Program-made: the position numbers and the translations under genes
In this document: positions 34,854 through 54,375 of the stretch, one piece after another
How positions within the stretch are numbered: position 1 is the stretch's first letter
How the letters are laid out: every line of letters begins with the position of its first letter
Source of the DNA: Chitinophagales bacterium
GTDB lineage: Bacteria > Bacteroidota > Bacteroidia > Chitinophagales > LD1
NCBI GenBank assembly: GCA_046329535.1
Contig: JAXLUN010000004.1
Coordinates: forward strand, 76,443-140,442
DNA length: 64,000 bases
Reading direction: 5' to 3'
The notes under the pieces: model-generated
What the model saw: only the letters and a program-made list of their open reading frames with translations
Databases searched by the model: none
Told to the model about the DNA's origin: nothing

Positions 34854-34863
34854 AGGCTTTTTG

Positions 34864-35340: not shown

Positions 35341-35358
35341 CGTTTATCAAAGAACGGT

Positions 35359-36822: not shown

Positions 36823-37263
36823 AGTGTGTGTGTAATATGCCTGCTACCAAAAGTATTTGAAAGCCACATAACCAAAAAATATTTCACGTATTATTTTTTG
36901 CTAAAACCCTTGCTGCATCAGGGTTTTAGCGTATGGTTAATGCATAATTTGGCAATATACATACCCAATATGGGGTAAAAAATACCTAATAGGGTGTAGT
37001 ATAAGCTTGGGTGCAAAATGAAAACCGACAGCAGCCTGCTGCCTGCCTCCACGGCTGGTATTTTAACTTTAACCCCTAACAAGCGGAAAAGAAAACCTGC
37101 ACCACTTATTTACAAAAGCCTTATGCAACCACGGTTTGGGTGCATTTTGAAACCCGAATAGCCCCCCAAAAGCACCTGATAAACCCTGAAAAACGCCAAA
37201 ATTTGTCTTTGCGTGCCGCCACCGCAGCCCCTAACCTTGTGTTGCCAAAAGCAAGAAAGGTTT

Positions 37264-37698
37264 ATGAACTTAACTATCCATACCCCAACCCTTCAGCCAC
37301 CGCACACCCTGCTGCTAAGCAACAGCGATGGTTGGTTTAACATACCGCTTGGTAACATTTTGGTATGCAGCAGTTGTAACTCGTACACCGTGGTTAAGCT
37401 AACCGGTGGGCAGCAAATAGTGGTGTCGCAAAATATGCCGTATTACGAAAAAGCCCTCAGCCCCCTGGGTTTTGCACGTATACACCAAAGCCACCTCATC
37501 AATTTGCAGCACCTAACCCACCTGAGCAAAGCCACAGGCGGGGTAGATGCCACCCTCAGCAACGGTTTAATACTGCCCGTATCGCGACAGTTTAAAACCT
37601 CTTTAATAGAAACCCTTAAACAGCGCAGTGTAGATGCCCTACTGCGCCAGGGTATGCAAATACCCGATACGCCTAAAACACAACCCGATTCAAATTAA
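37264..37698 (+). CDS. Stand-alone LytTR-domain DNA-binding protein (no receiver domain)
   Basis: 144 aa. The segment IPLGNILVCSSCNSYTVVKLTGGQQIVVSQNMPYYEKALSPLGFARIHQSHLINLQHL matches the LytTR pattern (xxSxxNYxxxxxxxG....R...HRSxxVN). The track start at 37213 is GTG, and ATG at 37264 is preferred. Confidence 0.75.
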   Translation: MNLTIHTPTLQPPHTLLLSNSDGWFNIPLGNILVCSSCNSYTVVKLTGGQQIVVSQNMPYYEKALSPLGFARIHQSHLINLQHLTHLSKATGGVDATLSNGLILPVSRQFKTSLIETLKQRSVDALLRQGMQIPDTPKTQPDSN

Positions 37699-37812
37699 GT
37701 ATTACCCTATTCACATTTACCCGAAACATCAACTAAAACCACAACACTTTTAAACGGCCAAACAAGGCCACACACTAACAAAGTTCTTTAATAAAACTAT
37801 TCATCCATACAG

Positions 37813-38165
37813 CTTCCAAAAACATGGAAGTGGATTTCGGACATCGGAAATCGACTTCCAAAAACATGGAAGTGGACTTCAGACACGGGAAGTCGACTTC
37901 CAAAAACATGGAAGTGGACTTCGGACACGGGAAGTCGACTTCCAAAAACATGGAAGTGGACTTCAGACACGGGAAGTCGACTTCCAAAAACATGGAAGTG
38001 GACTTCAGACACGGGAAATCGACTTCCAAAAACATGGAAGTGGATTTCGGACATCGGAAATCGACTTCCGAAAACATGGAAGTGGACTTCGGACACGGGA
38101 AATCGACTTCCAAAAACACGGAAGTGGATTTCGGACATCGGAAATTGACCTCCCAAAACAGGGAA
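37813..38165. repeat. Tandem array of 8 complete 42-bp units plus a degenerate ninth, equal to 16 palindromic GGAAGT-SG-ACTTC(C) sites at ~21-bp spacing
   Basis: Unit boundaries fall at 37813, 37855, 37897, 37939, 37981, 38023, 38065 and 38107. The consensus is CTTCCAAAAACATGGAAGTGGACTTCrGACAyGGGAArTCGA. The unit junction forms the perfect 14-bp palindrome GGAAGTCGACTTCC. Confidence 0.95.
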
Positions 38166-38291
38166 CCTATTTAGTGGTGTTAGAAATGAAATGAACTGAA
38201 AAGAACAAGCAACCGGTAACAGAAAAAAAGCAGAGCAATTAAAAATAGAAGTTGAAAACGAAAAGATTCATAACCACTAAACCACAAAGCT

Positions 38292-39266
38292 ATGATTAAT
38301 CCAATTCGTCTTTGTAACAATTTATTTAATGAGAAGAGCCTATCAGATGCCAACCTTCGTAGTTTTTGCGAAGATCATCTGATACGCCTGTCAAACAACA
38401 ATCCGGGAGCTATATACAGTACGCTTATTTCAGAAACTACCAATAAGTATACGGCTTACTATGGTAAAATGACCAGCCAGGCGGTTCAACTCTCTATACA
38501 GGAAAGTATGACGGCCAGTATGAAAGACGCAAAAGTTTTAGTAGAAGAGAAGATACGCTCTTTCTATGGTTTGGCACTTTTCAAGTTTGGCGAAGGCAAT
38601 CCTTCTTTTCAAATGCTTTATCCACTTGGCCTGGGCGAGTATATGAACGCCAAAATAGGCGATGTAAATAAACTATACGAACGTTTGGTAATCAATGCCA
38701 CCACTTTGCTTAATGCCGATTTTCCGGCCGAGGTTACAGCTCTTGATAACGCGGTGGCGGCTTATTTATCAGCCCGTACCGCCCAGGAAAATGCCTTTAG
38801 TTTGGTAGATAATTTAATTACCGGCAAAAACAGCGACCGCCTGGCGCTGACCGTTCAGCTAACCAAAAACTTTTTAATAGTAGCCTCTAACAACATTAGC
38901 AACCCCGACCAGTTTAATGACTTTTACGATGCGGCCTATCTGCCTATTTCCGAGAGTAGCCAAAGCATAACCGAAGAAGGAATAATTACCGGCAAACAGA
39001 TTATTAATATACAGCCCGATGGGGTGGTTTATACCAACCAAACCATGATAGAACTTTACAACCCCGGCCTGACCACCCTGCGCTACTACTTTGCCCCGGT
39101 ACCCGGTGTAGACCCTAACGAATCGGAACCATTTGTAGAGGTAGCGGCCAATGAGCAAATAACAAAATCTGCAACCGCCCTGGGCCTTAGCCCCGACCGG
39201 CAGTTTTTTACCGTTCAAAATCAACAGGAATTAACCGGCAGTTATAAAGTAATTATAAAGCCCTAA
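38292..39266 (+). CDS. Hypothetical protein (helical N-terminal ~220 aa, beta-rich C-terminal ~100 aa)
   Basis: 324-aa ORF starting ~130 bp downstream of the 42-bp array. It has no signal peptide and no recognised motif. Confidence 0.5.
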   Translation: MINPIRLCNNLFNEKSLSDANLRSFCEDHLIRLSNNNPGAIYSTLISETTNKYTAYYGKMTSQAVQLSIQESMTASMKDAKVLVEEKIRSFYGLALFKFGEGNPSFQMLYPLGLGEYMNAKIGDVNKLYERLVINATTLLNADFPAEVTALDNAVAAYLSARTAQENAFSLVDNLITGKNSDRLALTVQLTKNFLIVASNNISNPDQFNDFYDAAYLPISESSQSITEEGIITGKQIINIQPDGVVYTNQTMIELYNPGLTTLRYYFAPVPGVDPNESEPFVEVAANEQITKSATALGLSPDRQFFTVQNQQELTGSYKVIIKP

Positions 39267-39404
39267 CCATATGCACCAAGTAGATGGCCTTATTCTGTTA
39301 CTCTGTTTTATTCTGCTGGCAGCTTTATTACTGCTGGTGCGCCTCATGCTGTAAGGCATGGTAAAAAGTAGTTCATTAATTAATCACCATAAAAACCAAA
39401 TGTT

Positions 39405-39617
39405 ATGAAAAAAGTATTCTTCGCCCTCTTCGCCCTAACCCTTCTGGTATCTTTTAACAGCTGCACCAAGTGCTGGGTATGTAAAGATAAAACCAGCACT
39501 ACTTACGAACACGTTAAGTATTGCGATAAAGATTATGACAAAGGCGATGTAGACGCCATTATAGAAGATATGGAAGATAACGGCTACTCGTGCCACGCCT
39601 CTACTATGGCCTTGTAA
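39405..39617 (+). CDS. Small Cys-rich lipoprotein
   Basis: 70 aa with the signal and lipobox MKKVFFALFALTLLVSFNSC, followed by TKCWVCKDK..YCDKDYDKGD..YSCH. Confidence 0.45.
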   Translation: MKKVFFALFALTLLVSFNSCTKCWVCKDKTSTTYEHVKYCDKDYDKGDVDAIIEDMEDNGYSCHASTMAL

Positions 39618-39690
39618 ACAACTTACACCAGGTAGGCCGGTTAGCCGGCTTGCCTGGTATTTTTTACTTCTAAAAACAATTCTATAACGC

Positions 39691-40017
39691 ATGAAAAAAT
39701 ACACCGCCAAAATGACTCTGACCACCCTGCTGGTAGTCCTGTTTTGCCAAACAACTATTGCACAGGAAAGCGAGCAATTAACCCTTACCGGCAAGGTAAA
39801 CAGCATAGCTTTTTATCCACCCACTGCCGATGTGCCACCGGGCATAAGTGGCCACACTGTAAGCTTTACCGACCAAAATGGCAAAGCCCGCAACCAGGGC
39901 ATTGACAAAGCCACCTTTGATAAACTGCAAGAAGCCCTTGAAACCAAAACCCTTGATAAAATAACCGTGCACTACTACGCCAAACACGAAACCGTAGAAG
40001 TTGTATTAAAGAAATAA
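39691..40017 (+). CDS. Small secreted protein
   Basis: 108 aa with the signal peptide ...LLVVLFCQTTIAQE. Confidence 0.45.
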   Translation: MKKYTAKMTLTTLLVVLFCQTTIAQESEQLTLTGKVNSIAFYPPTADVPPGISGHTVSFTDQNGKARNQGIDKATFDKLQEALETKTLDKITVHYYAKHETVEVVLKK

Positions 40018-40052
40018 AAAATACTCTGCCCTACATAAACCACACTATTACT

Positions 40053-40568
40053 ATGAAACAACTATTCACTATCGCCTTTGTAATACTTACAGCCCTTGGT
40101 TATGCGCAAAACTACCCGGTGCCCGATTACAACAACACCCCATTTTATTACAACGGCACCGAACTGGTTGAACTCGATGCTGTGCAATATGTAGTAGGCG
40201 CACGACCTAAAGGTTTAACCGGTGCCGAAGCCGCGCTATATTTAAACGGCACAACCTCTTCGGTAAAAATTGAAAAAGATGCCGCCAAATTCATTGTAAA
40301 ACTCGAACCCGGAGTTGACCCCCGCACCCTCATTGATTTAAACAAGGCTACCGTAAACCAACACAGCGGTAAACGCGAATTTGTAGTATACAAAAAAGGC
40401 GCGTTTACTGCCGAAGGCACTAATCCCACAGTAGATATCTCATTCAAAAAAGTTGGCGAAGGATTATATCTGGTTACCACTAAAGCACCCATAGAAAGCG
40501 GAGAGTATTTTTTCTCAGCAGCTGCCAACGCCTCTTCCAAAGTAGTTTACTGTTTTACTATTAAGTAA
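40053..40568 (+). CDS. Secreted beta-rich protein
   Basis: 171 aa with the signal peptide MKQLFTIAFVILTALGYAQ. Confidence 0.5.
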   Translation: MKQLFTIAFVILTALGYAQNYPVPDYNNTPFYYNGTELVELDAVQYVVGARPKGLTGAEAALYLNGTTSSVKIEKDAAKFIVKLEPGVDPRTLIDLNKATVNQHSGKREFVVYKKGAFTAEGTNPTVDISFKKVGEGLYLVTTKAPIESGEYFFSAAANASSKVVYCFTIK

Positions 40569-40664
40569 TAAGCTACGATTAGATTATTTCTTATTAGCAC
40601 AAGGACCATCAGTTATATACACTAAATACAATACACAAAAGCAGAAGTTGCTGAATAAATAGAA

Positions 40665-43600
40665 ATGGGGGCCAACAATACATACACTTTGTTAAGGCGG
40701 GTAAAACACGGCATTGTCATCTGGTTATGCAGCATGACAGGGCTGGTTCATGGCCAACTAAACCCGCCCTGGTTTGTTACCCAAAATCCTCCGCCCTCCA
40801 GTGCCTGTGGTATTGTTAATCCTATTATTTCAGTAGTAACCCCAAGCCCAATATGCTATAACCGCACGGTAACCATTCGCCTAAACTATGATATAGCCCT
40901 CGATACCATATATCTTGACTTTGGCGATAACAAAGACATTACCATTGTAGGGGCCTCCATTTTGCCAAATACTATGGATGTAACCCATGTGTACACTTTT
41001 ACCCCGGCCGATAGTTGCCCCTCTATTGCTTTCGGCCCACCGGCTATATCCTGTATAGTAAAAGCCTATTTTTTTAAGCGATGCGGCCCATCGGCTTATA
41101 GTTATGTATCTACTACCAATAACTCCATGGCCTTTAGGTTTAAACCCCGGGTAAGGTTTCAAACCACCAACTACTTAACTAATTACGTGCCGGGGCAAAA
41201 CCTGCTGGTGGCCTGCAACACTAATTGTGTGCAGTTAGATATGAGTAACTGCTGCACCAATACCTACATAGGAACCGACTCAACTGACTATTGGTGGAGC
41301 TTTGGTGATGGAACCCCCAACGATACCTTTAGCAACACCCCCGATGGAAACTTTATAAGCCCGGTGCATTGCTATGCGCATCCTTCGGTAAGCCCGGCAT
41401 ACTACACCATTAAGCTGCATGCAGAAAACGAATGTGGGGTAAGCGAAGATTGGGGTAAATTATACGTACAGGAAATTGCCGATGTGCAGGTTGACCCGGG
41501 GCCCTATTGCACCGGCAGTGCAGTAGGGGTGCATATTACCGCCAGCGGAGGCCTGGGTAACCCTGTTTATTCAACTACGGTAACCCCACCGGGGTGTTCA
41601 ACTATTGCCGGAGACTCTACCGCCAACCCCCAAATAACCTTTACCTGTGCCGGCACCTTTACCATTAACAGCGCCTATGGTTTTTGTTCCGAAACACGAA
41701 CTATAACCGTAGACCAAGGGGTAGATATGCAGCAGAGCCCGGTGCCCGATGATTGTTATACCGGCAGCAACAGTATTAATCTGGCGGCTTATTTTTTCAG
41801 CTCCGCCACTACCCAATCCAACCATTTTAGCATAACCGATACCGCAGGTGCAATATTGTTTTCGGCTACCGGTTCATCGGTTCCCTCTTCATCTATTACA
41901 CTACCCCATGCCGGGCGGTATTTTGTGTATGATAGTTCAATAACTACTTGCAACACGGTTGTGTTTACCGATACATTTTATTTGCAACCGCCTTTATCTA
42001 TAGCCTTGCCTGCCGATACGATAGTTTGTCTTCAAACCCTATTTGTATTACCCAATGTGCCGGGTGCTGTTCGCACCTTAAACGGTACCCCCACCACCGA
42101 TACTTTTTATGTGTACCCTGCGGGCGTGTATACCGTAACCTATACCCCAATTTCGTGCGGCAGCAGTGTATCGTTTACTATTACCACTAAAGGCACCGAG
42201 TCATTGGTAAGCGACTATACCTATTGCTCATCACCGGGGGCCATTGTGCTATCGGGTACGCAGCCCAACACTTTATTTAGCGGGCCTCATATCAGCAACG
42301 ACACCCTATACGGAAATGCAGCCGGCCCCGGCAGTCATGTATTTTACTCCTCCTATACAGCTGCCGATGGTTGTATATTCTTAGATACGGCTCAGGTTCA
42401 AATTCTATCTTCCATAAATGCCGGAGTAACATTGCCCGATACAGTTTGTGCCGGCTCACCGGTTACATTAAGTAATATTCCGGCAGGTCTATCAACCACT
42501 ACCAACTGGGGCGATGGCACAACAGATAATAATGTGACCCACACCTACAATATAAGTGGCACTATGTTTTTATCCATACGTTTTTCCGATGGCACTTGCG
42601 ATACTACTATGACCGATACGCTGTTGGTTATTGATGCTCCGGCATCCACCTTTTTATTATTGCCCGATACCGCCTGTAGCGGAGACACTGTAACTATACA
42701 GTTTACACCCAATACCCTGTATCAACAGCAATGGGAATATAACGGAAACACTTCCTTAACGCCCCCTGTAATGGTTGCCAATAACAGCAGCAGTGCCGTT
42801 ATATGCCAAACCGTTACTTTATCTGTATCGTACCCGCAATGCCCAACTGCCGTTAGCAGCCAACCGGTATGTTTCTATCCGGCCACACAGGCCATTGCCG
42901 ATATTGATTTCGACTCGGTATGCAGCCCCTTGCCGGTTACTATTATTAACAATTCAATAGTGGGACCGGGTGCAACTTATCAGTGGTTTAAAAACGGGGT
43001 TCTGTTTAGCACAACCAATGCACCCCTGCAACAAGATACCTTAAATGCCTATACAACCGACACCACCTATACATATATGTTGGTCGTTAACTCGTGTGGA
43101 GCAAACGATACCGTATACCAGGCAGTAACAGTTCACCCGGTCAACTTTACTCCGGTGTTATATGTTTCTTCGCTTTCACCGTGCCGGTATGATACCATAC
43201 TTTATTGGACCTCTCCCATAACGGGGTGCACGGCCAATTATAATTTTGGAGATGGTTCCGCTATACAGGCAGGCTCTGCCGATACTATAAGCCATATATA
43301 CACTACCGAAGGAAACTATGCAGCTACTGTAACCATGTATTGCGCTTGCAAAACAAAGTCCGATAATCTTACTATTCAGGTTCAGCCCGGGCCGCAGTTA
43401 TCTGTATCCGATCCGGTAGATACTTGCAAAAATCAGCTGGTAACAATCAATAGCTCGGTAACCGGCACCATAGCCCCGGGTAGCTACACAACCTGGTTTG
43501 GCGATGGCGCTACTAATATCGGCTCTGCCAATCCTACCCATACCTATACACAAGATGGAACTTACCAGGGTCAAATGTTGGTGTATGGCATTAATGGTTG

Positions 43601-44438
43601 CCGATCAGATACTGCTACATTTAGTATTGATATTTTTAACGTCCCCAACATTAATACAAACCCTGCCGATACTTTTGCCTGCAGCGCAATACTTACACAA
43701 CTTTCGGTTGATACCGGCACAGTAAATTCAACCTATGTATGGAATATAGCGTGTCATAGTCAGCATACGCAGGTTACTACTTACAATGGGGCCTTGCCTT
43801 TTTACGCAGAAGAGGCGGGGGAGTATGAAATTTTACTGTATGCCTACAATAACAATCATCCGGCCTGTTTAGCTAAAGCGGATAGTTTTAGTGTAACGGT
43901 ATACGAATCACCAATGGCATTCTTTACCGTAGACTTTCCCTATATCTCTCAATCTGAGTATGTGTTCCCTATTCATAATATGAGCACACCTAATACCAAT
44001 ACCTATATATGGAACTTTGGAGATAATACCTACAGTAATGAGGTTAATCCGGAAGCACATGCTTATACGGCATTTGGATATTACGATATCGTATTAACCG
44101 CCCGAAATGGCCCTTGTGAAGATACTGCATTGTCACAGGTTTTTGCAGATCCCTACCTGCAGTTATTTATACCGAATGTATTTACTCCCAACTCGGATGG
44201 GATAAATGATGTGTTTGAGATATACGGCAATAAGCAGGATATAGATTATTTACATGTGCGAGTTTACAATCGTATAGGCGAGAAAGTGTTTGATTCATAC
44301 AACCTGGAATTTAAGTGGGACGGAACCTATAAAAGTGAGCCTTTGGTTCAGGCAGTGTATGTATATACTGTTGAAATATCGGCTATTCATGATGCAGATA
44401 AACGGTTAGTAAAGGGAAGTATAACACTACTGCGGTAA
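40665..44438 (+). CDS. Large PKD-repeat surface protein with a T9SS type-B C-terminal domain
   Basis: 1257 aa with at least 5 PKD-like WxFGDG signatures (WWSFGDGT, NWGDGTT, YNFGDGS, TWFGDGAT, IWNFGDNT). The C-terminus is FIPNVFTPNSDGINDVFEIYG..VYNRIGEKVF..WDGTY..YVYTVEI..GSITLLR. Confidence 0.85.
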   Translation: MGANNTYTLLRRVKHGIVIWLCSMTGLVHGQLNPPWFVTQNPPPSSACGIVNPIISVVTPSPICYNRTVTIRLNYDIALDTIYLDFGDNKDITIVGASILPNTMDVTHVYTFTPADSCPSIAFGPPAISCIVKAYFFKRCGPSAYSYVSTTNNSMAFRFKPRVRFQTTNYLTNYVPGQNLLVACNTNCVQLDMSNCCTNTYIGTDSTDYWWSFGDGTPNDTFSNTPDGNFISPVHCYAHPSVSPAYYTIKLHAENECGVSEDWGKLYVQEIADVQVDPGPYCTGSAVGVHITASGGLGNPVYSTTVTPPGCSTIAGDSTANPQITFTCAGTFTINSAYGFCSETRTITVDQGVDMQQSPVPDDCYTGSNSINLAAYFFSSATTQSNHFSITDTAGAILFSATGSSVPSSSITLPHAGRYFVYDSSITTCNTVVFTDTFYLQPPLSIALPADTIVCLQTLFVLPNVPGAVRTLNGTPTTDTFYVYPAGVYTVTYTPISCGSSVSFTITTKGTESLVSDYTYCSSPGAIVLSGTQPNTLFSGPHISNDTLYGNAAGPGSHVFYSSYTAADGCIFLDTAQVQILSSINAGVTLPDTVCAGSPVTLSNIPAGLSTTTNWGDGTTDNNVTHTYNISGTMFLSIRFSDGTCDTTMTDTLLVIDAPASTFLLLPDTACSGDTVTIQFTPNTLYQQQWEYNGNTSLTPPVMVANNSSSAVICQTVTLSVSYPQCPTAVSSQPVCFYPATQAIADIDFDSVCSPLPVTIINNSIVGPGATYQWFKNGVLFSTTNAPLQQDTLNAYTTDTTYTYMLVVNSCGANDTVYQAVTVHPVNFTPVLYVSSLSPCRYDTILYWTSPITGCTANYNFGDGSAIQAGSADTISHIYTTEGNYAATVTMYCACKTKSDNLTIQVQPGPQLSVSDPVDTCKNQLVTINSSVTGTIAPGSYTTWFGDGATNIGSANPTHTYTQDGTYQGQMLVYGINGCRSDTATFSIDIFNVPNINTNPADTFACSAILTQLSVDTGTVNSTYVWNIACHSQHTQVTTYNGALPFYAEEAGEYEILLYAYNNNHPACLAKADSFSVTVYESPMAFFTVDFPYISQSEYVFPIHNMSTPNTNTYIWNFGDNTYSNEVNPEAHAYTAFGYYDIVLTARNGPCEDTALSQVFADPYLQLFIPNVFTPNSDGINDVFEIYGNKQDIDYLHVRVYNRIGEKVFDSYNLEFKWDGTYKSEPLVQAVYVYTVEISAIHDADKRLVKGSITLLR

Positions 44439-44546
44439 GTTTTATTCGTCTTTAACAAAAACAGTTGACTGAATCCATAAAATATAAATCACCCGTCAAG
44501 TTATTTGCCAGAAAGTATAATCATAAACTCAACAAATACTAACCCC

Positions 44547-45659
44547 ATGAAACAAAGTATCCTCCTGCTGCTCGCAATCAGTATGATGCAATCGGCATTT
44601 GCACAAGATTATCTCAAAACCAAAAAAGGCGATGAGGTTCCGGTAAAGATTATATCCGTAACCGATACCAAAGTAGAATATAAACCCTTCTACTATCAGG
44701 AAGGCGGTTCGCTGTTTTTCGATAAAAAAGACATACAGTCTATTAAGTATGCCGATGGCCGCCTGCTTAATTTCGATGCCCCTGTAGTTCCTGTTTCATC
44801 GGGTATAAATACATATAGCAGTAGTGCCCCCAGCACCTCATCGGCCGATGCGCTGAAAGGTTTAGAGAAGTTAACCGGCCAGATAACCGAACTAAACAAA
44901 GGCCAAACAGACCAAACAAAAGCACTAACGGAAACCTTAAATGCATTGAATGCTAATATTACATCGCTTAAAACGGCCATAGAGCAAGGCAACACCGAAA
45001 CTAAAAAGCAGAACGAAGAGGTGTCGTCTAAACTGAATTCCTTAAACAGTTCGGTCAAAGAGCTGAATGAAACCACACAAACCAAAAGTGGAGCAGAGGC
45101 CAATGCCATAGTGCCGCGCAAATTTGGTATGGGGGTAAGCTTTATTACCAACTATCTGTTAAATGCATTTAGTGATGATGAAGGGGCGCCTATCATCAAT
45201 CAATACAACGGTTTATTTATGGGTGCCGGGTTTAACCTGATAGTTTCCACACGGATGGATAAAAAGGTCGGTTTCAGATATGAACCGGAATTCAGTGTGG
45301 CATCATCATTCAGCCGAAGTAAAGATGGAAATGATATATCGGCTAATCGAATAAGTATATTCAGTTTTGGCTCCCGCTTTTTGGGTGTTGCCCGCAGAAA
45401 CCGTGTAAACATATACGCAGGTCCGTCCATAACTATTTTCGGAGTAGTGGCCTCTTTACGTGAAAATGAGTTGACAACAACCAGTGCTATGGTGGGTGCC
45501 GGTTTTGGTTTGCATTTTGGTGGTGAGTATCTGGTGCATCCCAATTTTGGTATTAACATGGAATCGGGTATGCAGTTGTATGGTTTGTTTCCCAAAGGGG
45601 GATATGCCGAGGGGGTATTTTCAACCTATGGTCGTTTAGGCGGCCGGTTCTACTTCTAA
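44547..45659 (+). CDS. Outer-membrane protein with an N-terminal domain, a coiled coil and a C-terminal beta-barrel
   Basis: Signal peptide MKQSILLLLAISMMQSAFAQ at the ATG at 44547. The middle has coiled-coil heptads (LTGQITELNKGQTDQTKALTETLNALNANITSLK). The C-terminal ~180 aa have an alternating beta pattern ending GRLGGRFYF. Confidence 0.6.
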   Translation: MKQSILLLLAISMMQSAFAQDYLKTKKGDEVPVKIISVTDTKVEYKPFYYQEGGSLFFDKKDIQSIKYADGRLLNFDAPVVPVSSGINTYSSSAPSTSSADALKGLEKLTGQITELNKGQTDQTKALTETLNALNANITSLKTAIEQGNTETKKQNEEVSSKLNSLNSSVKELNETTQTKSGAEANAIVPRKFGMGVSFITNYLLNAFSDDEGAPIINQYNGLFMGAGFNLIVSTRMDKKVGFRYEPEFSVASSFSRSKDGNDISANRISIFSFGSRFLGVARRNRVNIYAGPSITIFGVVASLRENELTTTSAMVGAGFGLHFGGEYLVHPNFGINMESGMQLYGLFPKGGYAEGVFSTYGRLGGRFYF

Positions 45660-45676
45660 AATCATTGTCAAACTTC

Positions 45677-47065
45677 ATGAGAATTTTTCATTTGGTAAGT
45701 GTTTGTTTAGCCAGCGTATGCTTCGCATGGGCTCAAACTCCTGCTGTTTGTATGTTTACTTTTCAGGAGTCTGGTACGGTAAAGAAGTATTCCTATACAA
45801 GAACTACCAATGCCCCCGATGCTAATCTGTTTATTACCGGTTATGTTGTAACCGATAACAGTTCTATACCATACAGAATATTTAAAATAACCAACAACAC
45901 CGCTAAAAGAGAATTATCTCTGCTCATTATTCAAGCCAAAACCGGCTTGGTAGAAGATGAATACAATTATACCTATTCCCCCTTCTCGGGCTTATTAATT
46001 AAAGACGGAGACGATTCGGTATCAAATATCAAGAAACCTGATTTATATCTTCTTTCTTTTGAGAACGAGCGGAAAGAGTATGTCTTTCTTCACTCCCTAA
46101 CACATATCGCTGATTACAGTGTTTTCTTTTCGCCTGTTTCCGATACTTTACAGAAAAGAAATAACGAGTTGCTGAAACAGAATGCATTTTTCAGGCAGGA
46201 GATGCAAAAGCAGGAAACTATTAGGGCCGAAGAAGAGAAACAGAAAAAAATAAAAGAGGAAGAAGAGAATAGGATAAATGCACTGGCAGAAGCCCGGGTA
46301 AAAAAAATTGTTGATTCATTAAGTACTCTAAACGCCCGGAATGAAACTGTTAAATCGCATACCCAGGATGATTCATTGCAAATGCACATTGAATTGTTTT
46401 ATCAGCAGTACTATAAGGATTCAATAGCTATTACGGAGATTAATCAATCTATCAATACAGAAATCCACGATAGATTCTATAACGTTAATGATGAAGATGT
46501 ACTAATTATCAGCAACGGTAGATTTATAGGCGATACCAAATCGGCCAATATGGAGGGGCATGGTATTTTGATTGTAGATAATAGAAGGGTTTATGTAGGT
46601 ACTTTTATCAAAAATCAATTTTTGGCCGGCAAGGTAAATCTGAAGTACGAACTTCCTTTAAAAGAGCAATACATTGGAGGTTGGGAAAGCGCCCGGCCAG
46701 AGGGTTTAGGTTGCTGGTTTTTTGCTAATGGAGATATAGAATTGGGCCATTTCGGTAATGGAGTTTTAATGCATGGTATTATACGTAAAACAGAGAGTAA
46801 TGGTAATTCCTATTTCGGTCATACAGACATATTAAAAAAGAATGGTTTTGGCTCCTATCAAACGGCCAACACTAGCAAGTATATAGGTATTTTCGCGAAT
46901 GATATTTTGCAAAATGGGTACATTATTCAGGTAGATGATGTAGGTTTAAGAACGTATTATAGAGTAAAGGGGGCAGTTAAATACGAAACGGATAAATCAA
47001 CGGTTTTGCAGTTCATTAAACTAGCAGAAAATATTGCAAGTAAGGCCGGTGGCCGAATAGATTAA
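45677..47065 (+). CDS. Secreted protein with an E/K-rich coiled coil and MORN-like repeats
   Basis: Signal peptide MRIFHLVSVCLASVCFAWAQ (ATG at 45677; the track start at 45665 is TTG). The MORN-like segment is YIGGWESARPEGLGCWFFANGDIELGHFGNGVLMHG. Confidence 0.55.
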   Translation: MRIFHLVSVCLASVCFAWAQTPAVCMFTFQESGTVKKYSYTRTTNAPDANLFITGYVVTDNSSIPYRIFKITNNTAKRELSLLIIQAKTGLVEDEYNYTYSPFSGLLIKDGDDSVSNIKKPDLYLLSFENERKEYVFLHSLTHIADYSVFFSPVSDTLQKRNNELLKQNAFFRQEMQKQETIRAEEEKQKKIKEEEENRINALAEARVKKIVDSLSTLNARNETVKSHTQDDSLQMHIELFYQQYYKDSIAITEINQSINTEIHDRFYNVNDEDVLIISNGRFIGDTKSANMEGHGILIVDNRRVYVGTFIKNQFLAGKVNLKYELPLKEQYIGGWESARPEGLGCWFFANGDIELGHFGNGVLMHGIIRKTESNGNSYFGHTDILKKNGFGSYQTANTSKYIGIFANDILQNGYIIQVDDVGLRTYYRVKGAVKYETDKSTVLQFIKLAENIASKAGGRID

Positions 47066-47106: not shown

Positions 47107-47697
47107 CTACAAAACCCTAAACTTTAGCTCCACTCTTTCATCTTGCCAAATACCCTCCGGGGTAATTATGTCATTTGTATATGGAAACGAGATGCCAGCC
47201 TTTTGAAAACAAGCCTGCACATATTCTGAGCATACATATTTCCGGTCATGAGTTCTTTTCCCTTTCCTAAACACCATGCGCAGTAAAATCCGGAAAATCT
47301 CCCAGTTGTCGTAGGGTCGAGTGAGTTCGTCCATACCAAATCTTATACAGTCTGCTAAACGCTCCTTTTCCTCCAAATGTACCGAAGCAATTACCACTAC
47401 TCCTTGATAAGGCTTCCGTTTTCCGTTATTATCTCTTATATATTTCGAAAGCGGTGCCATTCGAACCCCATACATCAATTCACTTTCTAAAAATAGAACC
47501 CGGTCAATGTTCTCCTCTTTGTATATGATGCCCACATGACTCCAAGCGCTTTTGCTGAAATATCGGATAGCCTTGGAGAAGAAATAGTCACCTGAACAGA
47601 AAAAAAGGTCGCCAGTCTTAATTTGAGGGCGGGCATTTGTGGTATATGGAACAACATCCAACTTGTTCAGGTACTCTCTATTGACTTGCAGTGCCAT
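47107..47697 (-). CDS. YiiX/YaeF-like permuted papain-fold (NlpC/P60 superfamily) protein
   Basis: 196 aa. GDLFFCSG..SKAIRYFSKSAWSHVGIIY provides the His, and YVCSEYVQACFQKAG provides the Cys. Confidence 0.55.
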   Translation of the reverse strand: MALQVNREYLNKLDVVPYTTNARPQIKTGDLFFCSGDYFFSKAIRYFSKSAWSHVGIIYKEENIDRVLFLESELMYGVRMAPLSKYIRDNNGKRKPYQGVVVIASVHLEEKERLADCIRFGMDELTRPYDNWEIFRILLRMVFRKGKRTHDRKYVCSEYVQACFQKAGISFPYTNDIITPEGIWQDERVELKFRVL

Positions 47698-47771
47698 AGG
47701 TGTATTTTTAGGCAGTATAATTATAGTAAATAGAGGTGAAACTGCCCTCTCAAAAAATATTCAGTCAAACA

Positions 47772-47802
47772 TTTGCAACTCTGTTGATAAAATCTATTTT
47801 TG
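47772..47802 (+). promoter_or_regulatory. Bacteroidota sigma-A type promoter upstream of rpsC
   Basis: TTTG (47772-47775), a 19-nt spacer, then TATTTTTG (47795-47802) matching TAnnTTTG. It lies ~42 nt upstream of the rpsC ATG. Confidence 0.55.
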
Positions 47803-47843
47803 CGTTCCCTTTTTGGAAAATAGGGTCAAAAACTAACAAATAA

Positions 47844-48569
47844 ATGGGTCAGAAAACAAGTCCAATATCTAATCGCCTCGGCATCGTTCGTGGATGGGAA
47901 AGTAACTGGTATGGCGGCAAAGATGCAGCTATGAAACTGGTGGAAGACGAAAAAATTCGTAAGTATTTAACTGCGCGCATCAACAAAGGAGGTATCTCTC
48001 ATATCATTATTGAGCGTACCATGAAACGTGTTACTGTAACAATACATACAAGCCGTCCGGGTATTATTATTGGCAGAGGAGGCACGGAGGTTGATCGTTT
48101 GAAAGAAGAGTTGAAAAAACTGACTGGAAAAGAGGTTCAGATAAACATAGTTGAAATTCGCAGACCGGAATTAGAGGCTGCTATTGTTGGTGAAACTGTT
48201 GCCAAACAGTTGGAGGCACGTATCAACTACCGCAGAGCGTTAAAGATGGCTATTGCATCAGCTATGCGTATGGGTGCTGAAGGAATAAAGATTCGTGTGA
48301 GCGGTCGTATTGGTGGAGCTGAAATGGCAAGAACTGAAGAATATAAGCAAGGAAGAACACCTCTTCATACTTGGAGAGCTGATATCGACTACGCTATATC
48401 TGAAGCACATACCGTTTATGGCAAAATTGGTATCAAGGTATGGGTTTGTAAGGGCGAGGTTTACGGTAAGAAAGACTTAACCGGAGCATTTGCTACTGAG
48501 CAAAAAGAGGAAAAACGTCAACCGAAAGGAAGAGTTACCGGTGGCACCAGACCAAGAAAAGAGAACTAA
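47844..48569 (+). CDS. rpsC: 30S ribosomal protein S3
   Basis: [25 protein letters not shown]..., with KH and S3-C domains; 241 aa. Confidence 0.95.
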
Positions 48570-48613
48570 GAGTAGAAAGTAATTTTAGATAAAGAGAGAA
48601 AACAAATTCAGTC

Positions 48614-49036
48614 ATGTTATTACCTAAGCGGACGAAATTCAGAAAAACCCAGAAAGGGAGAGTTGCTGAAACAACACAAAGAGGTCACGAGATCGCTTTC
48701 GGAACTTATGCTCTTAAATCATTAGAGAGCGGAAAGATAAGCAACAAACAAATTGAGGCAGCACGTGTGGCTTTTACCCGTTTCATGAAACGTGAAGGGA
48801 AAGTTTGGATTCGCATATTTCCGGATAAGCCAATTACCAAAAAGCCACTAGAGGTTCGTATGGGTAAAGGAAAGGGTAACCCGGAAGGTTGGGAAGCTCC
48901 TATTCAGGCTGGTAGAATTATTTTTGAAGTAGATGGCGTTTCACGCGAAGTAGCAGCAGAAGCCATGTTACTGGCAGCTCATAAAATGGGCGTAAAAACC
49001 AAATTTATCACCCGCAGAGATGCAGTGGAGGGATAG
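48614..49036 (+). CDS. rplP: 50S ribosomal protein L16
   Basis: [16 protein letters not shown]...; 140 aa. Confidence 0.95.
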
Positions 49037-49070
49037 GATAGTATTTTAACAAACAAGCTATAACCATATT

Positions 49071-49289
49071 ATGGGAGCAAATAAAAAATTGAATCAGGAA
49101 GACATTAAGCAGTTTGTAACGGAGGACTTAATTGCCAAAGTATCTGCAGATACTGCTGAATTGAAACGTCTGGAATTTAATCACGCGGTTACACCGCTTG
49201 ACAATCCGCTTAGCATTCGTGCCAAGAGAAGAGATGTGGCCAGATTGCGCACCGAATTGACAAAACGTAATAACGAGAAAAAAGCTTAA
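49071..49289 (+). CDS. rpmC: 50S ribosomal protein L29
   Basis: 72 aa with conserved operon position, and the motifs ELKRLEFNHA and IRAKRRDVARLRTEL. Confidence 0.9.
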   Translation: MGANKKLNQEDIKQFVTEDLIAKVSADTAELKRLEFNHAVTPLDNPLSIRAKRRDVARLRTELTKRNNEKKA

Positions 49290-49295
49290 TCAGCC

Positions 49296-49550
49296 ATGGA
49301 AAGAAATCTCAGAAAAGAAAGAATTGGTTTAGTAACCAGTGACAAAATGGATAAAACCATTACCGTTTCAATTGAAAGAAAGGTAAAGCACCCTATTTAT
49401 GGCAAGTTCGTGAAGACTACCAAAAGTTTCAAAGCACATGATGAAAAGAATGATGCTAAAGCCGGTGATACAGTAAAAATCAGTGAGACTCGTCCGCTTA
49501 GTAAGACTAAACGTTGGAGACTGGTAGAAGTGGTTGAGCGTGCTAAGTAA
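49296..49550 (+). CDS. rpsQ: 30S ribosomal protein S17
   Basis: [45 protein letters not shown]; 84 aa. Confidence 0.95.
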
Positions 49551-49597
49551 TCCTAATCGGGTCGCAGTTAATTTATATAAAACAGTAATTAAGTAAT

Positions 49598-49966
49598 ATG
49601 TTACAGCAAGAATCAAGAGCCAATGTGGCTGACAACAGCGGAGCAAAAGAAGTTTTGGTTATCCGTGTGTTAGGAGGAACCAGAAGAAGATATGCCAGCA
49701 TTGGTGACAAGGTAATTGTTGCTATTAAAAAGGCAATACCTACCGGAGGTGCTAAGAAAGGAACTGTTTCTACAGCTGTGGTGGTTAGAACCGCTAAGGC
49801 AATCAGAAGAAAGGATGGTTCATACATTCGTTTTGACGACAATGCAGTTGTGTTGTTAAATGCCCAGGATGAACCTAAAGGAACACGTATCTTCGGACCA
49901 GTTGCCCGTGAACTTCGTGATAAGCAGTTTATGAAAATTATTTCACTGGCTCCGGAAGTACTTTAA
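49598..49966 (+). CDS. rplN: 50S ribosomal protein L14
   Basis: [30 protein letters not shown]; 122 aa. Confidence 0.95.
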
Positions 49967-49998
49967 TTGATAACAGGATTTTAAGAAAATAAAGAATT

Positions 49999-50307
49999 AT
50001 GAAGTTTCATGTAAAAAAGAATGACGAAGTAATTATTATAGCAGGCGATGATAAAGGAAAGAAAGGCCGTATCATTGATGTAGATCGTCAGAAAGGGCGT
50101 GTGTTTGTAGATGGTGTTAATCTGAACAGTAAGCACACTAAGCCTAACGCAAAGAATCCTAATGGTGGTATTGTAAAAACGCCCGGCTCAATCAATATTT
50201 CCAATGTTCAGTTACTGTCAGATGGAAAACCAACCAGAATAGGACGTAAAGAGGAGAAGGGCAAAACGGTTCGTTTTTCTAAAAAGACCGGTAAGTCGTT
50301 AGACTAA
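49999..50307 (+). CDS. rplX: 50S ribosomal protein L24
   Basis: KOW motif VKKNDEVIIIAGDDKGKKGRI; 102 aa, in the conserved position after rplN. Confidence 0.9.
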   Translation: MKFHVKKNDEVIIIAGDDKGKKGRIIDVDRQKGRVFVDGVNLNSKHTKPNAKNPNGGIVKTPGSINISNVQLLSDGKPTRIGRKEEKGKTVRFSKKTGKSLD

Positions 50308-50331
50308 TTATAAACCGACAGCAAATTCAAA

Positions 50332-50357
50332 GGCGAAACATTGTTTCGCCTTTTTTA
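50332..50357 (+). terminator. Rho-independent terminator directly after rplX
   Basis: GGCGAAAC (50332-50339) pairs with GTTTCGCC (50343-50350) around a 3-nt loop and is followed by TTTTTTATTTT. Confidence 0.8.
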
Positions 50358-50388
50358 TTTTCATACCCTTAACTGCTGTGATCCCTCT

Positions 50389-50829
50389 ATGGAATGGAAA
50401 CTAAAGTTGTTTAACAAGTTAACGAATGAAGAGCTTTATGCTATTCTTCAGTTGCGGCAGCGAGTATTTATTGTAGAGCAGAACTGCCCTTACTTAGATA
50501 ATGACGGCAAGGACTTTTATGCGCACCATTTGTGGGTACTCGGGCAGGGGCAAATAGCGGCCTATTGCCGTTTGTTGCCGGCAGGAATAAGTTATGAGGA
50601 GGTATCGATTGGACGTGTAGTTACTGCGCCCGAAATGAGAGGAAAAGGCTATGGACAAAAACTGATGGCCAAGGCTCTTGAAACAATTGAAGAGTTATAT
50701 GGTCCTGTACCGGTGCGCATTGGAGCACAAGCCTATTTGAGAAAGTTTTATGAGGATTTTGGTTTTGTAGATGTAGGCGAACCTTATTTAGAAGATGGTA
50801 TACCGCATCTGATCATGCTACGGACATGA
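50389..50829 (+). CDS. GNAT-family N-acetyltransferase, ElaA-like
   Basis: ELYAILQLRQRVFIVEQNCPYLDNDGKD..HH is an ElaA signature, and the acetyl-CoA loop is RGKGYGQKLM. The track TTG start at 50341 lies inside the rplX terminator, so ATG at 50389 is preferred. Confidence 0.75.
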   Translation: MEWKLKLFNKLTNEELYAILQLRQRVFIVEQNCPYLDNDGKDFYAHHLWVLGQGQIAAYCRLLPAGISYEEVSIGRVVTAPEMRGKGYGQKLMAKALETIEELYGPVPVRIGAQAYLRKFYEDFGFVDVGEPYLEDGIPHLIMLRT

Positions 50830-50862: not shown

Positions 50863-53800
50863 TTACTTGAGCAAGGTTACAGTGCCTTTGTATTTTCGGT
50901 TTTCACCATCTAAAAATGTAATGTTAGCTACATAGCTATAAACCCCGGGGTAGGCATCTTTGCCCTGATAGGTACCATCCCAGCCGATGGTGGTATTGTT
51001 AGAGTCGAACACCTTTTCGCCCCAGCGGTTAAATACCGTAAGCTTAAAGTAAACGGTATTGAGCGCGTAAACGGTAAACACATCGTTTTGCCCGTTGCCA
51101 TCGGGGGTAAACACGTTAGGAATAAACACTTGCTTATCGGCCAATACATTTACCTGTATTTCGCCAGAGGCTGAGCAGCCATTAGGGTCGGTTACCACTA
51201 CTTGATACTCCATGCTGTGAATAGCTGAGAAAGCCGGCATGGCACAGTCTGTACAGCTTAGATAAACAGCCGGGCTCCAGCTATAGGTATAGCTATTGTT
51301 GGCCGGAGTAATATTTACGTTTAAGCCTATTTCAGTGCCAAAGGGTATAGAGTCGAAACTGAGGCTGTTAAGGGTAATCTGGTCGGGTTCGGTCACTACT
51401 ACGGAATCGCTGGACTGGCAGTTGTTGGCATCGTTTACGGTGATGTTGTAGGTAGCCGCACCAACGTTTTGCAATGGTGCACCTGCACTGCCATTGCTCC
51501 AGTTAAAATTATAAGGTGGAACGCCCCCGGTAGCGGATACCTGTGCGCCTCCATCGGTATAACCAAAGCAGGTAGCGTTGGTTACGTTATCTACACTTAA
51601 AAGGAGCGGGGCTGGCGATTGCACGGTATAGGTAGCGCTGTCTAAGCATTGATTGGCATCGTATACCACCACACCATAGCTGCCGGCCGAAAGGGCAGAA
51701 GCGGTAGCTGTGTTTTGAACCGGTGTGGTGTTCCACACATACGAGTAGGATGGAGTGCCGCTGTTGGCAGTAACTGTAATGGCAGCATCGGCTGCGGCAA
51801 AACAGCTTTCATCGGTAGCATTAACCAGCGACAGCACCGGATTGGGGTTAACCGTAACCGTTAAGGTATTGCTGGTGTATTGGCAGCCGTTGGCATCTTG
51901 GCCGCTAAGGGTAAAGCTGCCCGACTGGGTAACGTTTATGTTATTGCCGGTAGCATTGTTGCTCCACAGGTAGCTAACGTAGGTAGAGTCGGAAGTTAAA
52001 TCGACATTGCCGCCTTGGCAGAACGCAAGCGGCCCTGCGGCACTGATAGTGGTAGGGGCAGGCGGGTTGTAAGTAACATTGATAGTGTTGCTGATATACT
52101 GACAGCCGGCTGCATCTACTGCGCCCATAAACCAGGCCCCCGGTTGCGATACGGTAACCGAGTTGGCCGTTGAATTATCGCTCCATAAATACGTAGCATA
52201 CACCGAGTCGGAGGTAAGGGTAACGCTGCCGCCCGCACATACAGGTATAGCACCCCCTGCGCTAATGGTAGTAGCAGCCGGAGGGTTTACGGTAACATTT
52301 ACCGTATCGGTAGCAAAGCAAGCACCGTTTATACCTACTAAAACATAAGGAGTGGTAACCGGTGCTGCAGTAGTATTGGTGTTGGTGTAAGTTGGGTTAG
52401 AAACGGTAGAGTCGGACAGGTGAAGCGAAGGCTGCCACAAGTAGGTAAAGCCCGCAGCGGGTGCGCTGCCTATTTGCACGGTGCCGCCCGAACAAACCGC
52501 TACATCGGGGCCGGCATTTGAAACCGGAGCAGCCGTAATGGTAAGGGTTTGGCTAACCTGAGGCGATACACAGCCTCCATCGGTTACATCGAGGGTAATG
52601 GTTTTATTGCCAAAGCCGCTCCACAGCACCTGATAAGGGCCCTGGCCGCTGCCGCTTTGAATAGTGCCGCCATTAAAGTTCCAGGTGTAGTTGGCGCTGG
52701 TAGGCGAGGTGCCGGTGTAGTTAACGGTTACCGGATTGTTTTCGCACACGGTATCGGGTAAAATAACAAACGACTGAGCGCCTCCGCCCAAGATAGTTAC
52801 ATCAATATTATCTACATCGGCACAGCCCCAGCGGTCGGTTACCACTACATTGTAGGTAGTGTTTACCACCGGATTAACCACATACGGGTTGGCGGTTGAG
52901 TTGCCGGGGTTCCAGGTATACACATAAGGGGCCGAACCCAGCAGGGTAGAAGCCGAAAAGCTGAGCGTGCTGCCGCCACAAACGGCCGTATCGTTAGGTA
53001 TAGTTAATTGCGGACAAAGGTTTACTTCAATTACCGATACACTTTGGGTATTGCAGGGGTAGTCGTTCCATTGGCCCGAAGAGTAGATTTGCGGACAATC
53101 TTCGCCATTGGCGCAGCGGTAGGCCTCGCTGCTTTGGCAGCCGCCCAACCAATCGGGAAAACTGCAACACGAAGAGTTCTGCCCGTTATTATTCGGCTCG
53201 CCCGGTGCCCAGTTCAGGTAGGTCATAGGGGTGCCATCCAGGGTTACCCAGGTGCCTTCATTGGCCTGGTCGGTGTAGCCCACCCACACAGCCTGATTGC
53301 CCGATATAATGCCCGCAGCATTGAGTGCCGCCACCACGGCTGCGTTTTCGGCAGCATCGTTAAACACTACCAGGTGCGCGCCCAATTGGCGGGCGGCAGT
53401 TTCGGCAGCATTGGCATCTTGCGAGGTAGGGTTTATAAAATATAAGCTGCATTGCTGGCCTTGCACCCCGCTCAGCTCGTTGTAACCCGCAGCGGCAAAG
53501 GCAGCGCGCAGGGCAAACAAATCGCAGCCCGGAGGGCCGGTGCACACCTGTGTGGTTACAGTGGCCGTAGCCGTAGCCTGGCAACTGTAGCGGTCGGTTA
53601 CTTGTACCTGATACGAGGTAGTAGCGCTGGGGGTAATATCAAGAATAGACGAGTTGCCTACGGTAGCGCCACCGGGCAGTTCGCTCCAGGTATAGCTGTA
53701 AGGTTGCGAGCCCAAAATAGTAGTAGCCGAAGCCTGTGTGTGGTAGCCCGAGCAAACCGGCAGGGCCGGAACCGTAGTGGTTATTTGCGGACAAAGGTTT

Positions 53801-54375
53801 ACTTCAATTACCGATACACTTTGCCTATCGCAAGGCAGGTCGTTCCAGTTTCCACCGCCATATATCTGCACACAATCCTCCCCGTATTGACAGCGCCATG
53901 CCTGGCTGCTTTGGCAACCGCCCAAGGCATCGGGAAAATTGCAACACGATGACCCCTGCCCGTTGTTGTTAGGCTCGCCCGATGACCAGTTAAGGTAGGT
54001 CATAGGCGTGCCGTCAAGCGTTACCCAGGTGCCTTCGCTGGCAGCATCGGTGTAGCCTATCCACACAGCCTGGTTGGCCGATATAATGCCCGCTGCATTA
54101 AGGGCCGCTACCACAGCCGTGTTTTCGGCTGCATCGTTAAACACCACCAGGTGGCCGCCCAGTTGCTGAGCCGCTACCTCGGCTACGTTGGCATCTTGCG
54201 AAGTAGGGTTAATAAAATACATACTGCACGGCTGACCCTGCACGCCCGTAAGCTCTATATAGCCCGCATTGGTATAGGCGGTTCTGATTGCCTGAATATT
54301 GCAACCCACGGGTTGTGCTACCCCTATAAAACCAGTAAAGACCAACAAACTCAGTAACAATAAGAGGTTTTTCAT
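50863..54375 (-). CDS. Secreted protein with two tandem C-type lectin-like domains, Ig-like/SprB repeats and a T9SS type-B C-terminal domain
   Basis: Signal peptide MKNLLLLLSLLVFTGFIGVAQ. The CTLD signature occurs twice: WIGYTD..EGTWVTLDGTPMTYLNW..GEPNNNGQ..GEDCVQIY..GNWNDLPC. SprB-type repeats are present (GTPSYSYVWN, GGVPPYNFNWSNG). The C-terminus is FIPNVFTPDGNGQNDVF..VFNRWGEKVF..WDGTYQGK..GVYSYV..GTVTLLK. Confidence 0.85.
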   Translation of the reverse strand: MKNLLLLLSLLVFTGFIGVAQPVGCNIQAIRTAYTNAGYIELTGVQGQPCSMYFINPTSQDANVAEVAAQQLGGHLVVFNDAAENTAVVAALNAAGIISANQAVWIGYTDAASEGTWVTLDGTPMTYLNWSSGEPNNNGQGSSCCNFPDALGGCQSSQAWRCQYGEDCVQIYGGGNWNDLPCDRQSVSVIEVNLCPQITTTVPALPVCSGYHTQASATTILGSQPYSYTWSELPGGATVGNSSILDITPSATTSYQVQVTDRYSCQATATATVTTQVCTGPPGCDLFALRAAFAAAGYNELSGVQGQQCSLYFINPTSQDANAAETAARQLGAHLVVFNDAAENAAVVAALNAAGIISGNQAVWVGYTDQANEGTWVTLDGTPMTYLNWAPGEPNNNGQNSSCCSFPDWLGGCQSSEAYRCANGEDCPQIYSSGQWNDYPCNTQSVSVIEVNLCPQLTIPNDTAVCGGSTLSFSASTLLGSAPYVYTWNPGNSTANPYVVNPVVNTTYNVVVTDRWGCADVDNIDVTILGGGAQSFVILPDTVCENNPVTVNYTGTSPTSANYTWNFNGGTIQSGSGQGPYQVLWSGFGNKTITLDVTDGGCVSPQVSQTLTITAAPVSNAGPDVAVCSGGTVQIGSAPAAGFTYLWQPSLHLSDSTVSNPTYTNTNTTAAPVTTPYVLVGINGACFATDTVNVTVNPPAATTISAGGAIPVCAGGSVTLTSDSVYATYLWSDNSTANSVTVSQPGAWFMGAVDAAGCQYISNTINVTYNPPAPTTISAAGPLAFCQGGNVDLTSDSTYVSYLWSNNATGNNINVTQSGSFTLSGQDANGCQYTSNTLTVTVNPNPVLSLVNATDESCFAAADAAITVTANSGTPSYSYVWNTTPVQNTATASALSAGSYGVVVYDANQCLDSATYTVQSPAPLLLSVDNVTNATCFGYTDGGAQVSATGGVPPYNFNWSNGSAGAPLQNVGAATYNITVNDANNCQSSDSVVVTEPDQITLNSLSFDSIPFGTEIGLNVNITPANNSYTYSWSPAVYLSCTDCAMPAFSAIHSMEYQVVVTDPNGCSASGEIQVNVLADKQVFIPNVFTPDGNGQNDVFTVYALNTVYFKLTVFNRWGEKVFDSNNTTIGWDGTYQGKDAYPGVYSYVANITFLDGENRKYKGTVTLLK
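53008..54303 (-). repeat. Intragenic tandem duplication (~780-bp period) of the CTLD-plus-linker module
   Basis: Residues ~25-196 and ~284-456 are near-identical. At DNA level, for example, GCGGACAAAGGTTTACTTCAATTACCGATACACTTTG occurs at both ~53010 and ~53790. Confidence 0.85.

Follow-up and report, generated by a model that had tools for sequence, protein, structure and literature searches.

A detached S3-L24 ribosomal-protein block in an uncultured Chitinophagales lineage, most probably left by an ancient fission of the str-S10-spc-alpha array

The S10-spc-alpha array of ribosomal-protein genes is among the most conserved bacterial gene orders and is often taken as fixed in annotation, in binning checks and in models of ribosome stoichiometry. 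The canonical array of Bacteroidota reads S12-S7-EFG-S10-L3-L4-L23-L2-S19-L22-S3-L16-L29-S17-L14-L24-L5-...-SecY-Map-IF1-L36-S13-S11-S4-RpoA-L17, and this order was found in most of the other Bacteroidota loci that we fetched. In Escherichia coli, L4 (rplD) autoregulates the S10 operon and S8 (rpsH) autoregulates the spc operon. The array is highly conserved yet alterable, since rearrangements are known in other phyla (PMC8046335, PMC6735719), and two routes have been proposed for them, either the separation of its parts by inserted genes ('invasion-separation') or segmental duplication followed by asymmetric loss (PMC8046335). Here, we describe a six-gene block, rpsC-rplP-rpmC-rpsQ-rplN-rplX, located away from the rest of the array in a 64,000-nt stretch of contig JAXLUN010000004.1 from a Chitinophagales bacterium (assembly GCA_046329535.1). 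This whole stretch is referred to below as the window, and all coordinates are window positions unless another contig is named.

The block occupies positions 47844-50307 on the plus strand. All six open reading frames (ORFs) are intact and each product scored above its NCBIfam equivalog cut-off, as determined from the ORF listing and an NCBIfam scan, with intergenic gaps of 6-47 nt and no internal transcription signal found inside the block. Its internal order, S3-L16-L29-S17-L14-L24, is that of the canonical array, with orthologous proteins. However, rplV is not upstream of rpsC in the window, where a divergent Peptidase_C92 gene stands instead, and rplE is not downstream of rplX, where a terminator and a GNAT gene are found. 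A tblastn search with 30 proteins of the canonical Dyadobacter cluster L046 revealed no ribosomal-protein genes in the window beyond the six. A first-pass annotation of the same DNA had described an isolated, intact six-gene block preceded by a divergent YiiX-like gene and followed by a GNAT gene, a description which the ORFs, NCBIfam and tblastn confirmed. We consider it very probable that this block arose by a real and ancient fission of the str-S10-spc-alpha array and has been inherited across an uncultured Chitinophagales lineage.

The distribution of the block was followed in related genomes. A contig scan, whose figures come from the matches listed and are not frequencies, gave L011 (S3 84% identical, 520-kb contig) and L012 (78%, 419-kb contig) as the two closest species among those matches. 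Both carry the isolated block within 10-kb flanks free of ribosomal genes, and the remaining 78 loci among the matches listed were either canonically arranged or of insufficient length to decide. A protein search with S3 listed 120 clusters with 75-100% identity to the window protein (NCBI, JGI, ENA and Logan), and the contexts at S3 identities of 76%, 77%, 78%, 85%, 87% and 87% (L098, L099, L100, L184, L186 and L187, respectively) all corresponded to an isolated block. The isolated block is therefore found in nine of nine species-level genomes when the window is counted, and for six of the eight related loci the contig measures 406 kb to 1.2 Mb. L22 was found neither in the 64-kb window nor within 10 kb of the block in the eight other clade genomes. 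L16 was 75-77% identical to the window protein in L011, L012, L098, L099 and L100 but at most 68% identical in canonical relatives. In a neighbour-joining tree of S3, L16, S17 and L14 (558 columns, 80 taxa, 100 bootstrap replicates), the nine block-bearing genomes were monophyletic with a bootstrap of 100/100, inside Chitinophagales and with ordinary branch lengths. The genes beside the block are unrelated from species to species, and this single clade with varied flanks suggests that the separation happened once, in an ancestor, and that the neighbourhood was reshuffled afterwards.

The comparison with sister genomes, which the first-pass annotation had proposed as a check, thus gave the isolated block in every clade genome tested. 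The same annotation had anticipated a lower novelty if the split were normal for the lineage and the genes single-copy; the former is what we observed in the nine monophyletic genomes, while single copy is inferred rather than counted. Between the window and the related contig L002, the six genes differ by 50 synonymous and no non-synonymous codons, against 38 synonymous and 18 non-synonymous codons in the neighbouring C92 gene. Judged from these codon differences, the six genes are under strict purifying selection.

To locate the rest of the array, we took advantage of L099, in which rpsD directly follows rplX without a terminator between them (rpsD 12463-13068 of that locus), so that its S4 could serve as an entry to the other ribosomal genes of the clade. 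In this sublineage, rpsD has moved from the alpha operon to the position directly after rplX, and three S4 clusters related to that of L099 match clade S3 clusters in contig size (42,068, 130,614 and 78,121 bp). S4 and S3 proteins were tied to the same contigs by identical contig sizes and cluster fingerprints for contigs of 520,325 bp (L011), 333,941 bp and 98,857 bp. The S4 protein of L101 is also the one encoded on the 520,325-bp L011 contig, and the listing of that contig as a similar place supports the L011 linkage. In L101, IF1-L36-S13-S11-S4-RpoA-L17 is separated by 6 kb of unrelated genes from L5-S14-S8-L6-L18-S5..., with L5 first in its block behind an unrelated gene and no L24 upstream. 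The 98,857-bp contig, L188, matches the longest contig listed for an S3 protein 87% identical to that of the window; it shows a divergent CHU_C gene followed by L5-S14-S8-L6-L18-S5-L30-L15-SecY-Map-IF1-S13-S11-S4-RpoA-L17, again with no L24 upstream. In L102 and L184, an alpha block is followed 8.4 kb further on by the S3 block.

A scan of JGI metagenomes with the clade L5 yielded, among the matches listed, two clade contigs (L104 and L105), both with a block opening with L5, the other 78 loci being canonical or too short. These L5-first blocks indicate that in clade genomes S3..L24 is missing from its usual place just ahead of L5. Searching proteins with the L5 of L013, a canonical relative, was uninformative for the clade, as each of the 120 matches listed came from a relative of L013 and reached no more than 73% identity to the clade L5, and the contexts of P0114 and P0054 were canonical arrays of unrelated genomes. 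A conserved stem-loop was also observed in the leader of the detached rplE block, at 18165-18217 in L101 and upstream of rplE in L104, L105 and L188. It reads GGACG-GTTGGAAT-CGTCC in three species and GCACG-GTTGGCAAT-CGTGC in L188, which amounts to one compensatory pair. From its sequence and place, it is possibly an autoregulatory site for S8 or L5; no Rfam family matched it and its folding energy was not above that of shuffles.

Upstream of rpsC, the promoter TTTG-N19-TATTTTTG proposed by the first-pass annotation was read at 47772-47802 and its position is conserved in the clade. The strict pattern TTTG-N19-TAnnTTTG is located 69-74 nt ahead of the S3 start codon in five species-level genomes (window, L011, L012, L098 and L100), while the -7 box is retained in L099 and lies at the equivalent place in L184, L186 and L187. 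Together with an extended start-region motif, the -7 box precedes S3 in nine of nine clade genomes. In Flavobacterium psychrophilum, this box occupies positions -12 to -5 relative to mapped transcription starts (PMC9723704), and transfer of the same spacing would place the start of block transcription near 47807, with a 5′ untranslated region of about 37 nt. A scan for E. coli-type sigma-70 promoters was uninformative in the window, with 11 sites for 8.8 expected. Across the window and five related loci, no Rfam family of leader RNAs attained its gathering score, and the only matches, at E up to 1, were at chance level. A hairpin in the S3 leader (47807-47825) was dismissed as a feature, since its folding did not surpass that of shuffles (z = +0.37). 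One subclade, L186 and L187, has a longer S3 leader, in which, at about 9950-10000, an attenuator-like element is formed by a small hairpin with a T-run behind it (ATGGC-TTTTTAT-GCCAT-TTTTTT); nothing comparable is present in the window.

At the other end of the block, the strong terminator announced after rplX by the same annotation proved to be an intrinsic one, with its stem at 50329-50353 followed by a T-run. Its folding energy of -14.1 kcal/mol (z = -4.76) was equalled by none of 200 shuffles. Non-homologous hairpins with T-runs follow L24 in L011 and L100. The features of the block and its boundaries are collected in Table 1.

Table 1. Coordinates of the block genes, their putative transcription signals and the neighbouring genes in the window.
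Feature	Positions	Strand	Evidence or description
Promoter cassette	47772..47814	+	-33 TTTG, spacer motif, -7 box, conserved start region
-33 element TTTG	47772-47775	+	sequence read
Spacer motif TGTTGATAAA	47782-47791	+	sequence read
-7 box TATTTTTG	47795-47802	+	19 nt after TTTG
Conserved start region CGTTCCCTTTTT	47803-47814	+	sequence read
rpsC (S3, 241 aa)	47844..48569	+	TIGR01009, 277 bits (cut-off 114.5)
rplP (L16, 140 aa)	48614..49036	+	TIGR01164, 177 bits (cut-off 77)
rpmC (L29, 72 aa)	49071..49289	+	TIGR00012, 27.8 bits (cut-off 22.6); Pfam Ribosomal_L29
rpsQ (S17, 84 aa)	49296..49550	+	TIGR03635, 122 bits (cut-off 89)
rplN (L14, 122 aa)	49598..49966	+	TIGR01067, 181 bits (cut-off 111)
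rplX (L24, 102 aa)	49999..50307	+	TIGR01079, 92 bits (cut-off 54)
Intrinsic terminator	50329..50363	+	11-bp stem (AAAGGCGAAAC / GTTTCGCCTTT) at 50329-50353, 3-nt loop, T-run
Peptidase_C92/YiiX-like gene (196 aa)	47107..47697	-	divergent upstream neighbour; boundary, outside operon
ElaA-like GNAT acetyltransferase gene	50389..50829	+	downstream neighbour; boundary, outside operon

The extended motif TAnnTTTGC[AG][GT][TC]CC(N)TTTT was then sought in all the fetched loci (2.29 Mb) and occurred 42 times, 40 of them within 400 nt upstream of S3, L3, IF1, S8, L5 or S12. The 15 cases ahead of S3 all came from loci of the fission clade. Because the fetched DNA consists largely of ribosomal-protein clusters, proximity alone says little, and the signal is the placement ahead of those few genes. 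When the sequences upstream of S3 (seven species), L5 (two), IF1 (two) and the Dyadobacter L3 were aligned, a shared architecture emerged. The full clade cassette, TTTG-N6-8-TGT[TG]G[AG][TC]AA-N4-6-TAnnTTTG with its start region, gave 19 matches, all 19 ahead of S3, L5 or IF1. The S3 promoter of the window and the IF1 promoter of L102 share one and the same 19-nt spacer, CAACTCTGTTGATAAAATC. The presence of the same cassette, of about 43 nt, at the head of the S3, L5 and IF1 fragments suggests that they are co-regulated at the promoter level, where balanced expression would be kept. The extended -7 motif, TAnnTTTGCAGTCC-TTTT, was also observed inside canonical arrays (L046 at 6800 and others), before rplC (12 loci), infA (5, some in clade loci), rpsH (4) and rpsL (2), which suggests that Cytophagales and Chitinophagales share one type of internal promoter for ribosomal-protein genes.

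More speculatively, the GC-containing CAGTCC after the -7 box could act like a discriminator. We also entertain, as a tentative idea that we hold to be rather less likely than its opposite, that operon coupling has been replaced by a regulon, in which the cassette TTTG-N6-8-TGTTGATAA-N4-6-TAnnTTTG-CAGTCC-TTTT on every fragment would respond to a common factor or to discriminator-type control, and in which cassette copies may have been the recombination substrates that cut the array.

The first-pass annotation had left three explanations side by side, namely a fission of the cluster, a paralogous copy and an assembly chimera. The first is sustained by the lineage-wide distribution and the L5-first blocks. 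An assembly or binning chimera, joining ribosomal genes to unrelated DNA, could be suspected from the repetitive, compositionally different surface-protein genes and the strain-variable region that flank the block, which are typical places for misjoins. However, the exact S3 protein of the window is present on 16 contigs from at least 10 independent runs, in addition to the NCBI metagenome-assembled genome (MAG) GCA_964594725.1, and every contig reaching the junctions reads C92(-)/S3..L24/GNAT. As the DNA further upstream of the C92 gene differs between strains while both junctions agree, these are independent assemblies of different strains. With the same junctions in 16 independently assembled contigs from several projects and the same isolated arrangement in a further eight species, in several of them on a contig of 0.4-1.2 Mb, we exclude a chimera for practical purposes. 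The paralogous copy supposes that the six core ribosomal proteins exist a second time beside a canonical S10/spc array, giving two ribosome populations. Against it, the clade rplE opens its own block without rplX, rplN or rpsC upstream, and the block is intact in nine of nine deep-branching species, with no non-synonymous change between strains, ordinary rather than accelerated branches and no divergent or relaxed sequence. The block proteins also cluster with Chitinophagales, as the flanking genes for type IX secretion system (T9SS)/CHU_C proteins would suggest, and the ribosomal-protein paralogue systems known to us concern L31, L33, L36, S14 and S18 rather than these six. A paralogue would find room at the junction downstream of rplV, which was not observed. 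No second copy was seen in the loci examined, which did not include a complete genome, and one S3 locus per genome among the matches listed is weak evidence. Nevertheless, we judge a second ribosome type, and with it ribosome heterogeneity, to be an unsupported and very improbable reading.

Were the block a cassette that moves or is passed on horizontally, and not a fission product inherited by descent, this would account for neighbours that differ in every species examined, for the tyrosine recombinase gene 4.5 kb downstream in L184 and for a block with its own promoter and terminator. Such a reading is hardly compatible with the phylogeny of the block, a single coherent clade (100/100), or with its native composition: the G+C of the block is 0.39-0.42, that of most of the window 0.35-0.44, and this match to the background gives no pointer to recent import. 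In the window, the block is bordered neither by inverted or direct repeats nor by a transposase or integrase. Since the L5 and alpha fragments have been shuffled too, general genome rearrangement explains the varied flanks, and we give transfer as small a chance as the paralogue.

Several points nonetheless weigh against a fission that left one autonomous copy. The unobserved rplV junction means that a second S3..L24 copy attached to rplV is formally possible, and the single copy that we infer does not come from a whole-genome count. The assignment of the L5 cluster to the contig that carries the S3 block relies on matching sizes and fingerprints rather than on a full reading of the contig, and context was checked for 9 of more than 100 related S3 clusters. 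The generic promoter pattern taken alone is not significant, its sole strict match in the window comparing with 0.57 expected and at least one being reached in 43% of shuffles; at this chance level, the support for the promoter is comparative. The transcription start and the extent of the transcript are predictions.

Under the fission that we favor, rpsC..rplX would have been separated, in the ancestor of a deep uncultured Chitinophagales lineage, from rplV on one side and from rplE on the other. The block would have become an autonomous operon, in which a sigma-A-type promoter (-33 TTTG, -7 TAnnTTTG) would start transcription about 37 nt before rpsC, and a single transcript would run through all six genes and end at the hairpin after rplX. 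The leftover genes of the array form units of their own headed by rplE and, in some species, also by infA. The stoichiometry once secured by co-transcription would probably be kept by the cassette heading each fragment. The cuts themselves could stem from segmental duplication with asymmetric loss or from invasion-separation, as proposed in other phyla (PMC8046335).

Regarding the surroundings of the block, the C92 and GNAT genes are absent beside it in the other clade species. In the GNAT gene, the longest ORF opens at a TTG (50341) inside the rplX terminator; the gene is called from the ATG at 50389 (146 aa) in related contigs, and this is probably the true start. The large flanking genes encode PKD/SprB/Lectin_C/CHU_C surface proteins with a G+C of 0.47-0.56, in agreement with the different base composition, compared with the block, that had been reported for them. 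One of these, on the minus strand at 50863-54375, encodes a 1170-aa surface protein in which two C-type lectin domains and SprB repeats are combined with a CHU_C (T9SS type B) sorting domain; the G+C of the gene rises to 0.56, far above the local background, and its DNA is 94.7-95.9% identical between strains, with indels.

Positions 32787-47065 form a strain-variable island. In the MAG contig L003, the C92 gene directly adjoins the genes that occupy 27815-32566 in the window; the roughly 14.5 kb missing there include the gene of a 1257-aa PKD/CHU_C adhesin and several genes without a family match, while L002 has a different gene set in the island, including a Peptidase_C1/ASH-domain protein. 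Over 47107-48569, DNA identity between the window and L002 is 89.5% in the C92 gene and 95.5% in rpsC, and it reaches 97.6-99.8% from rplP to the GNAT gene; this jump points to a strain-level recombination breakpoint at or just after rpsC, in a mosaic. In two MAGs of one series (JAXLUJ01 and JAXLUK01), rplX appears truncated or frame-shifted (L012 12188-12409 and L098 12123-12359), with 73 aa in L012 and no gene called in L098, probably through assembly indel errors rather than as pseudogenes.

These results show that a widespread uncultured Chitinophagales lineage, with more than 100 related S3 clusters in public data, has long been viable with a cut array. The clade is a natural experiment in balanced ribosomal-protein expression without co-transcription, and its cassette is a candidate ribosomal-protein promoter signature for Bacteroidota. 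For genome curation, an isolated S3-L24 block in such MAGs is no ground for a contamination or misassembly flag. Two further independent breaks were observed among about 78 other species loci, both in Bacteroidota MAGs outside the clade. In L055 (11223-20678), the array breaks after rplP (L16), with a terminator-like hairpin and 9 kb of unrelated genes, and in L085 (8374-15578), it breaks after rpsN (S14), which a convergent gene follows. Together with the clade, these breaks make the premise of the first-pass annotation, that the array is normally one contiguous unit in Bacteroidota, too strong.

Compared with the sigma-A promoters of Bacteroidetes (-33 TTTG / -7 TAnnTTTG), both elements are found before rpsC at a 19-nt spacing. 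The difference lies in the extension GC(A/G)(G/T)(T/C)CC-TTTT after the -7 box and TGT(T/G)G(A/G)(T/C)AA in the spacer, which is specific to ribosomal-protein blocks and of which a limited, targeted literature search returned no published description. Compared with the canonical array, the clade block breaks both the rplV-rpsC and the rplX-rplE adjacency. Relative to the S10 and spc operons of E. coli, it spans their boundary, the cuts between L22 and S3 and between L24 and L5 fall inside operons, and its genes are uncoupled from rplD (L4) and rpsH (S8). Either of the routes proposed for published rearrangements could yield the clade arrangement, but those studies concerned Proteobacteria, Acidobacteria, Firmicutes and Tenericutes rather than Bacteroidota, and the clade fragments are dispersed, each with a copy of one promoter cassette. 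The cost of moving ribosomal-protein genes has been addressed by relocating S10-spc-alpha in Vibrio cholerae (PMC5347342, PMC7191768, PMC10127744); in these studies, the whole locus was moved intact by engineering, whereas the clade array was cut naturally in a whole lineage. A limited literature search found no published description of this lineage's arrangement. The distinguishing features of this arrangement are a double cut, shared by the whole clade, at points that lie within single operons of E. coli, the resulting S3-L24 operon and the presence of one cassette at the head of every fragment.

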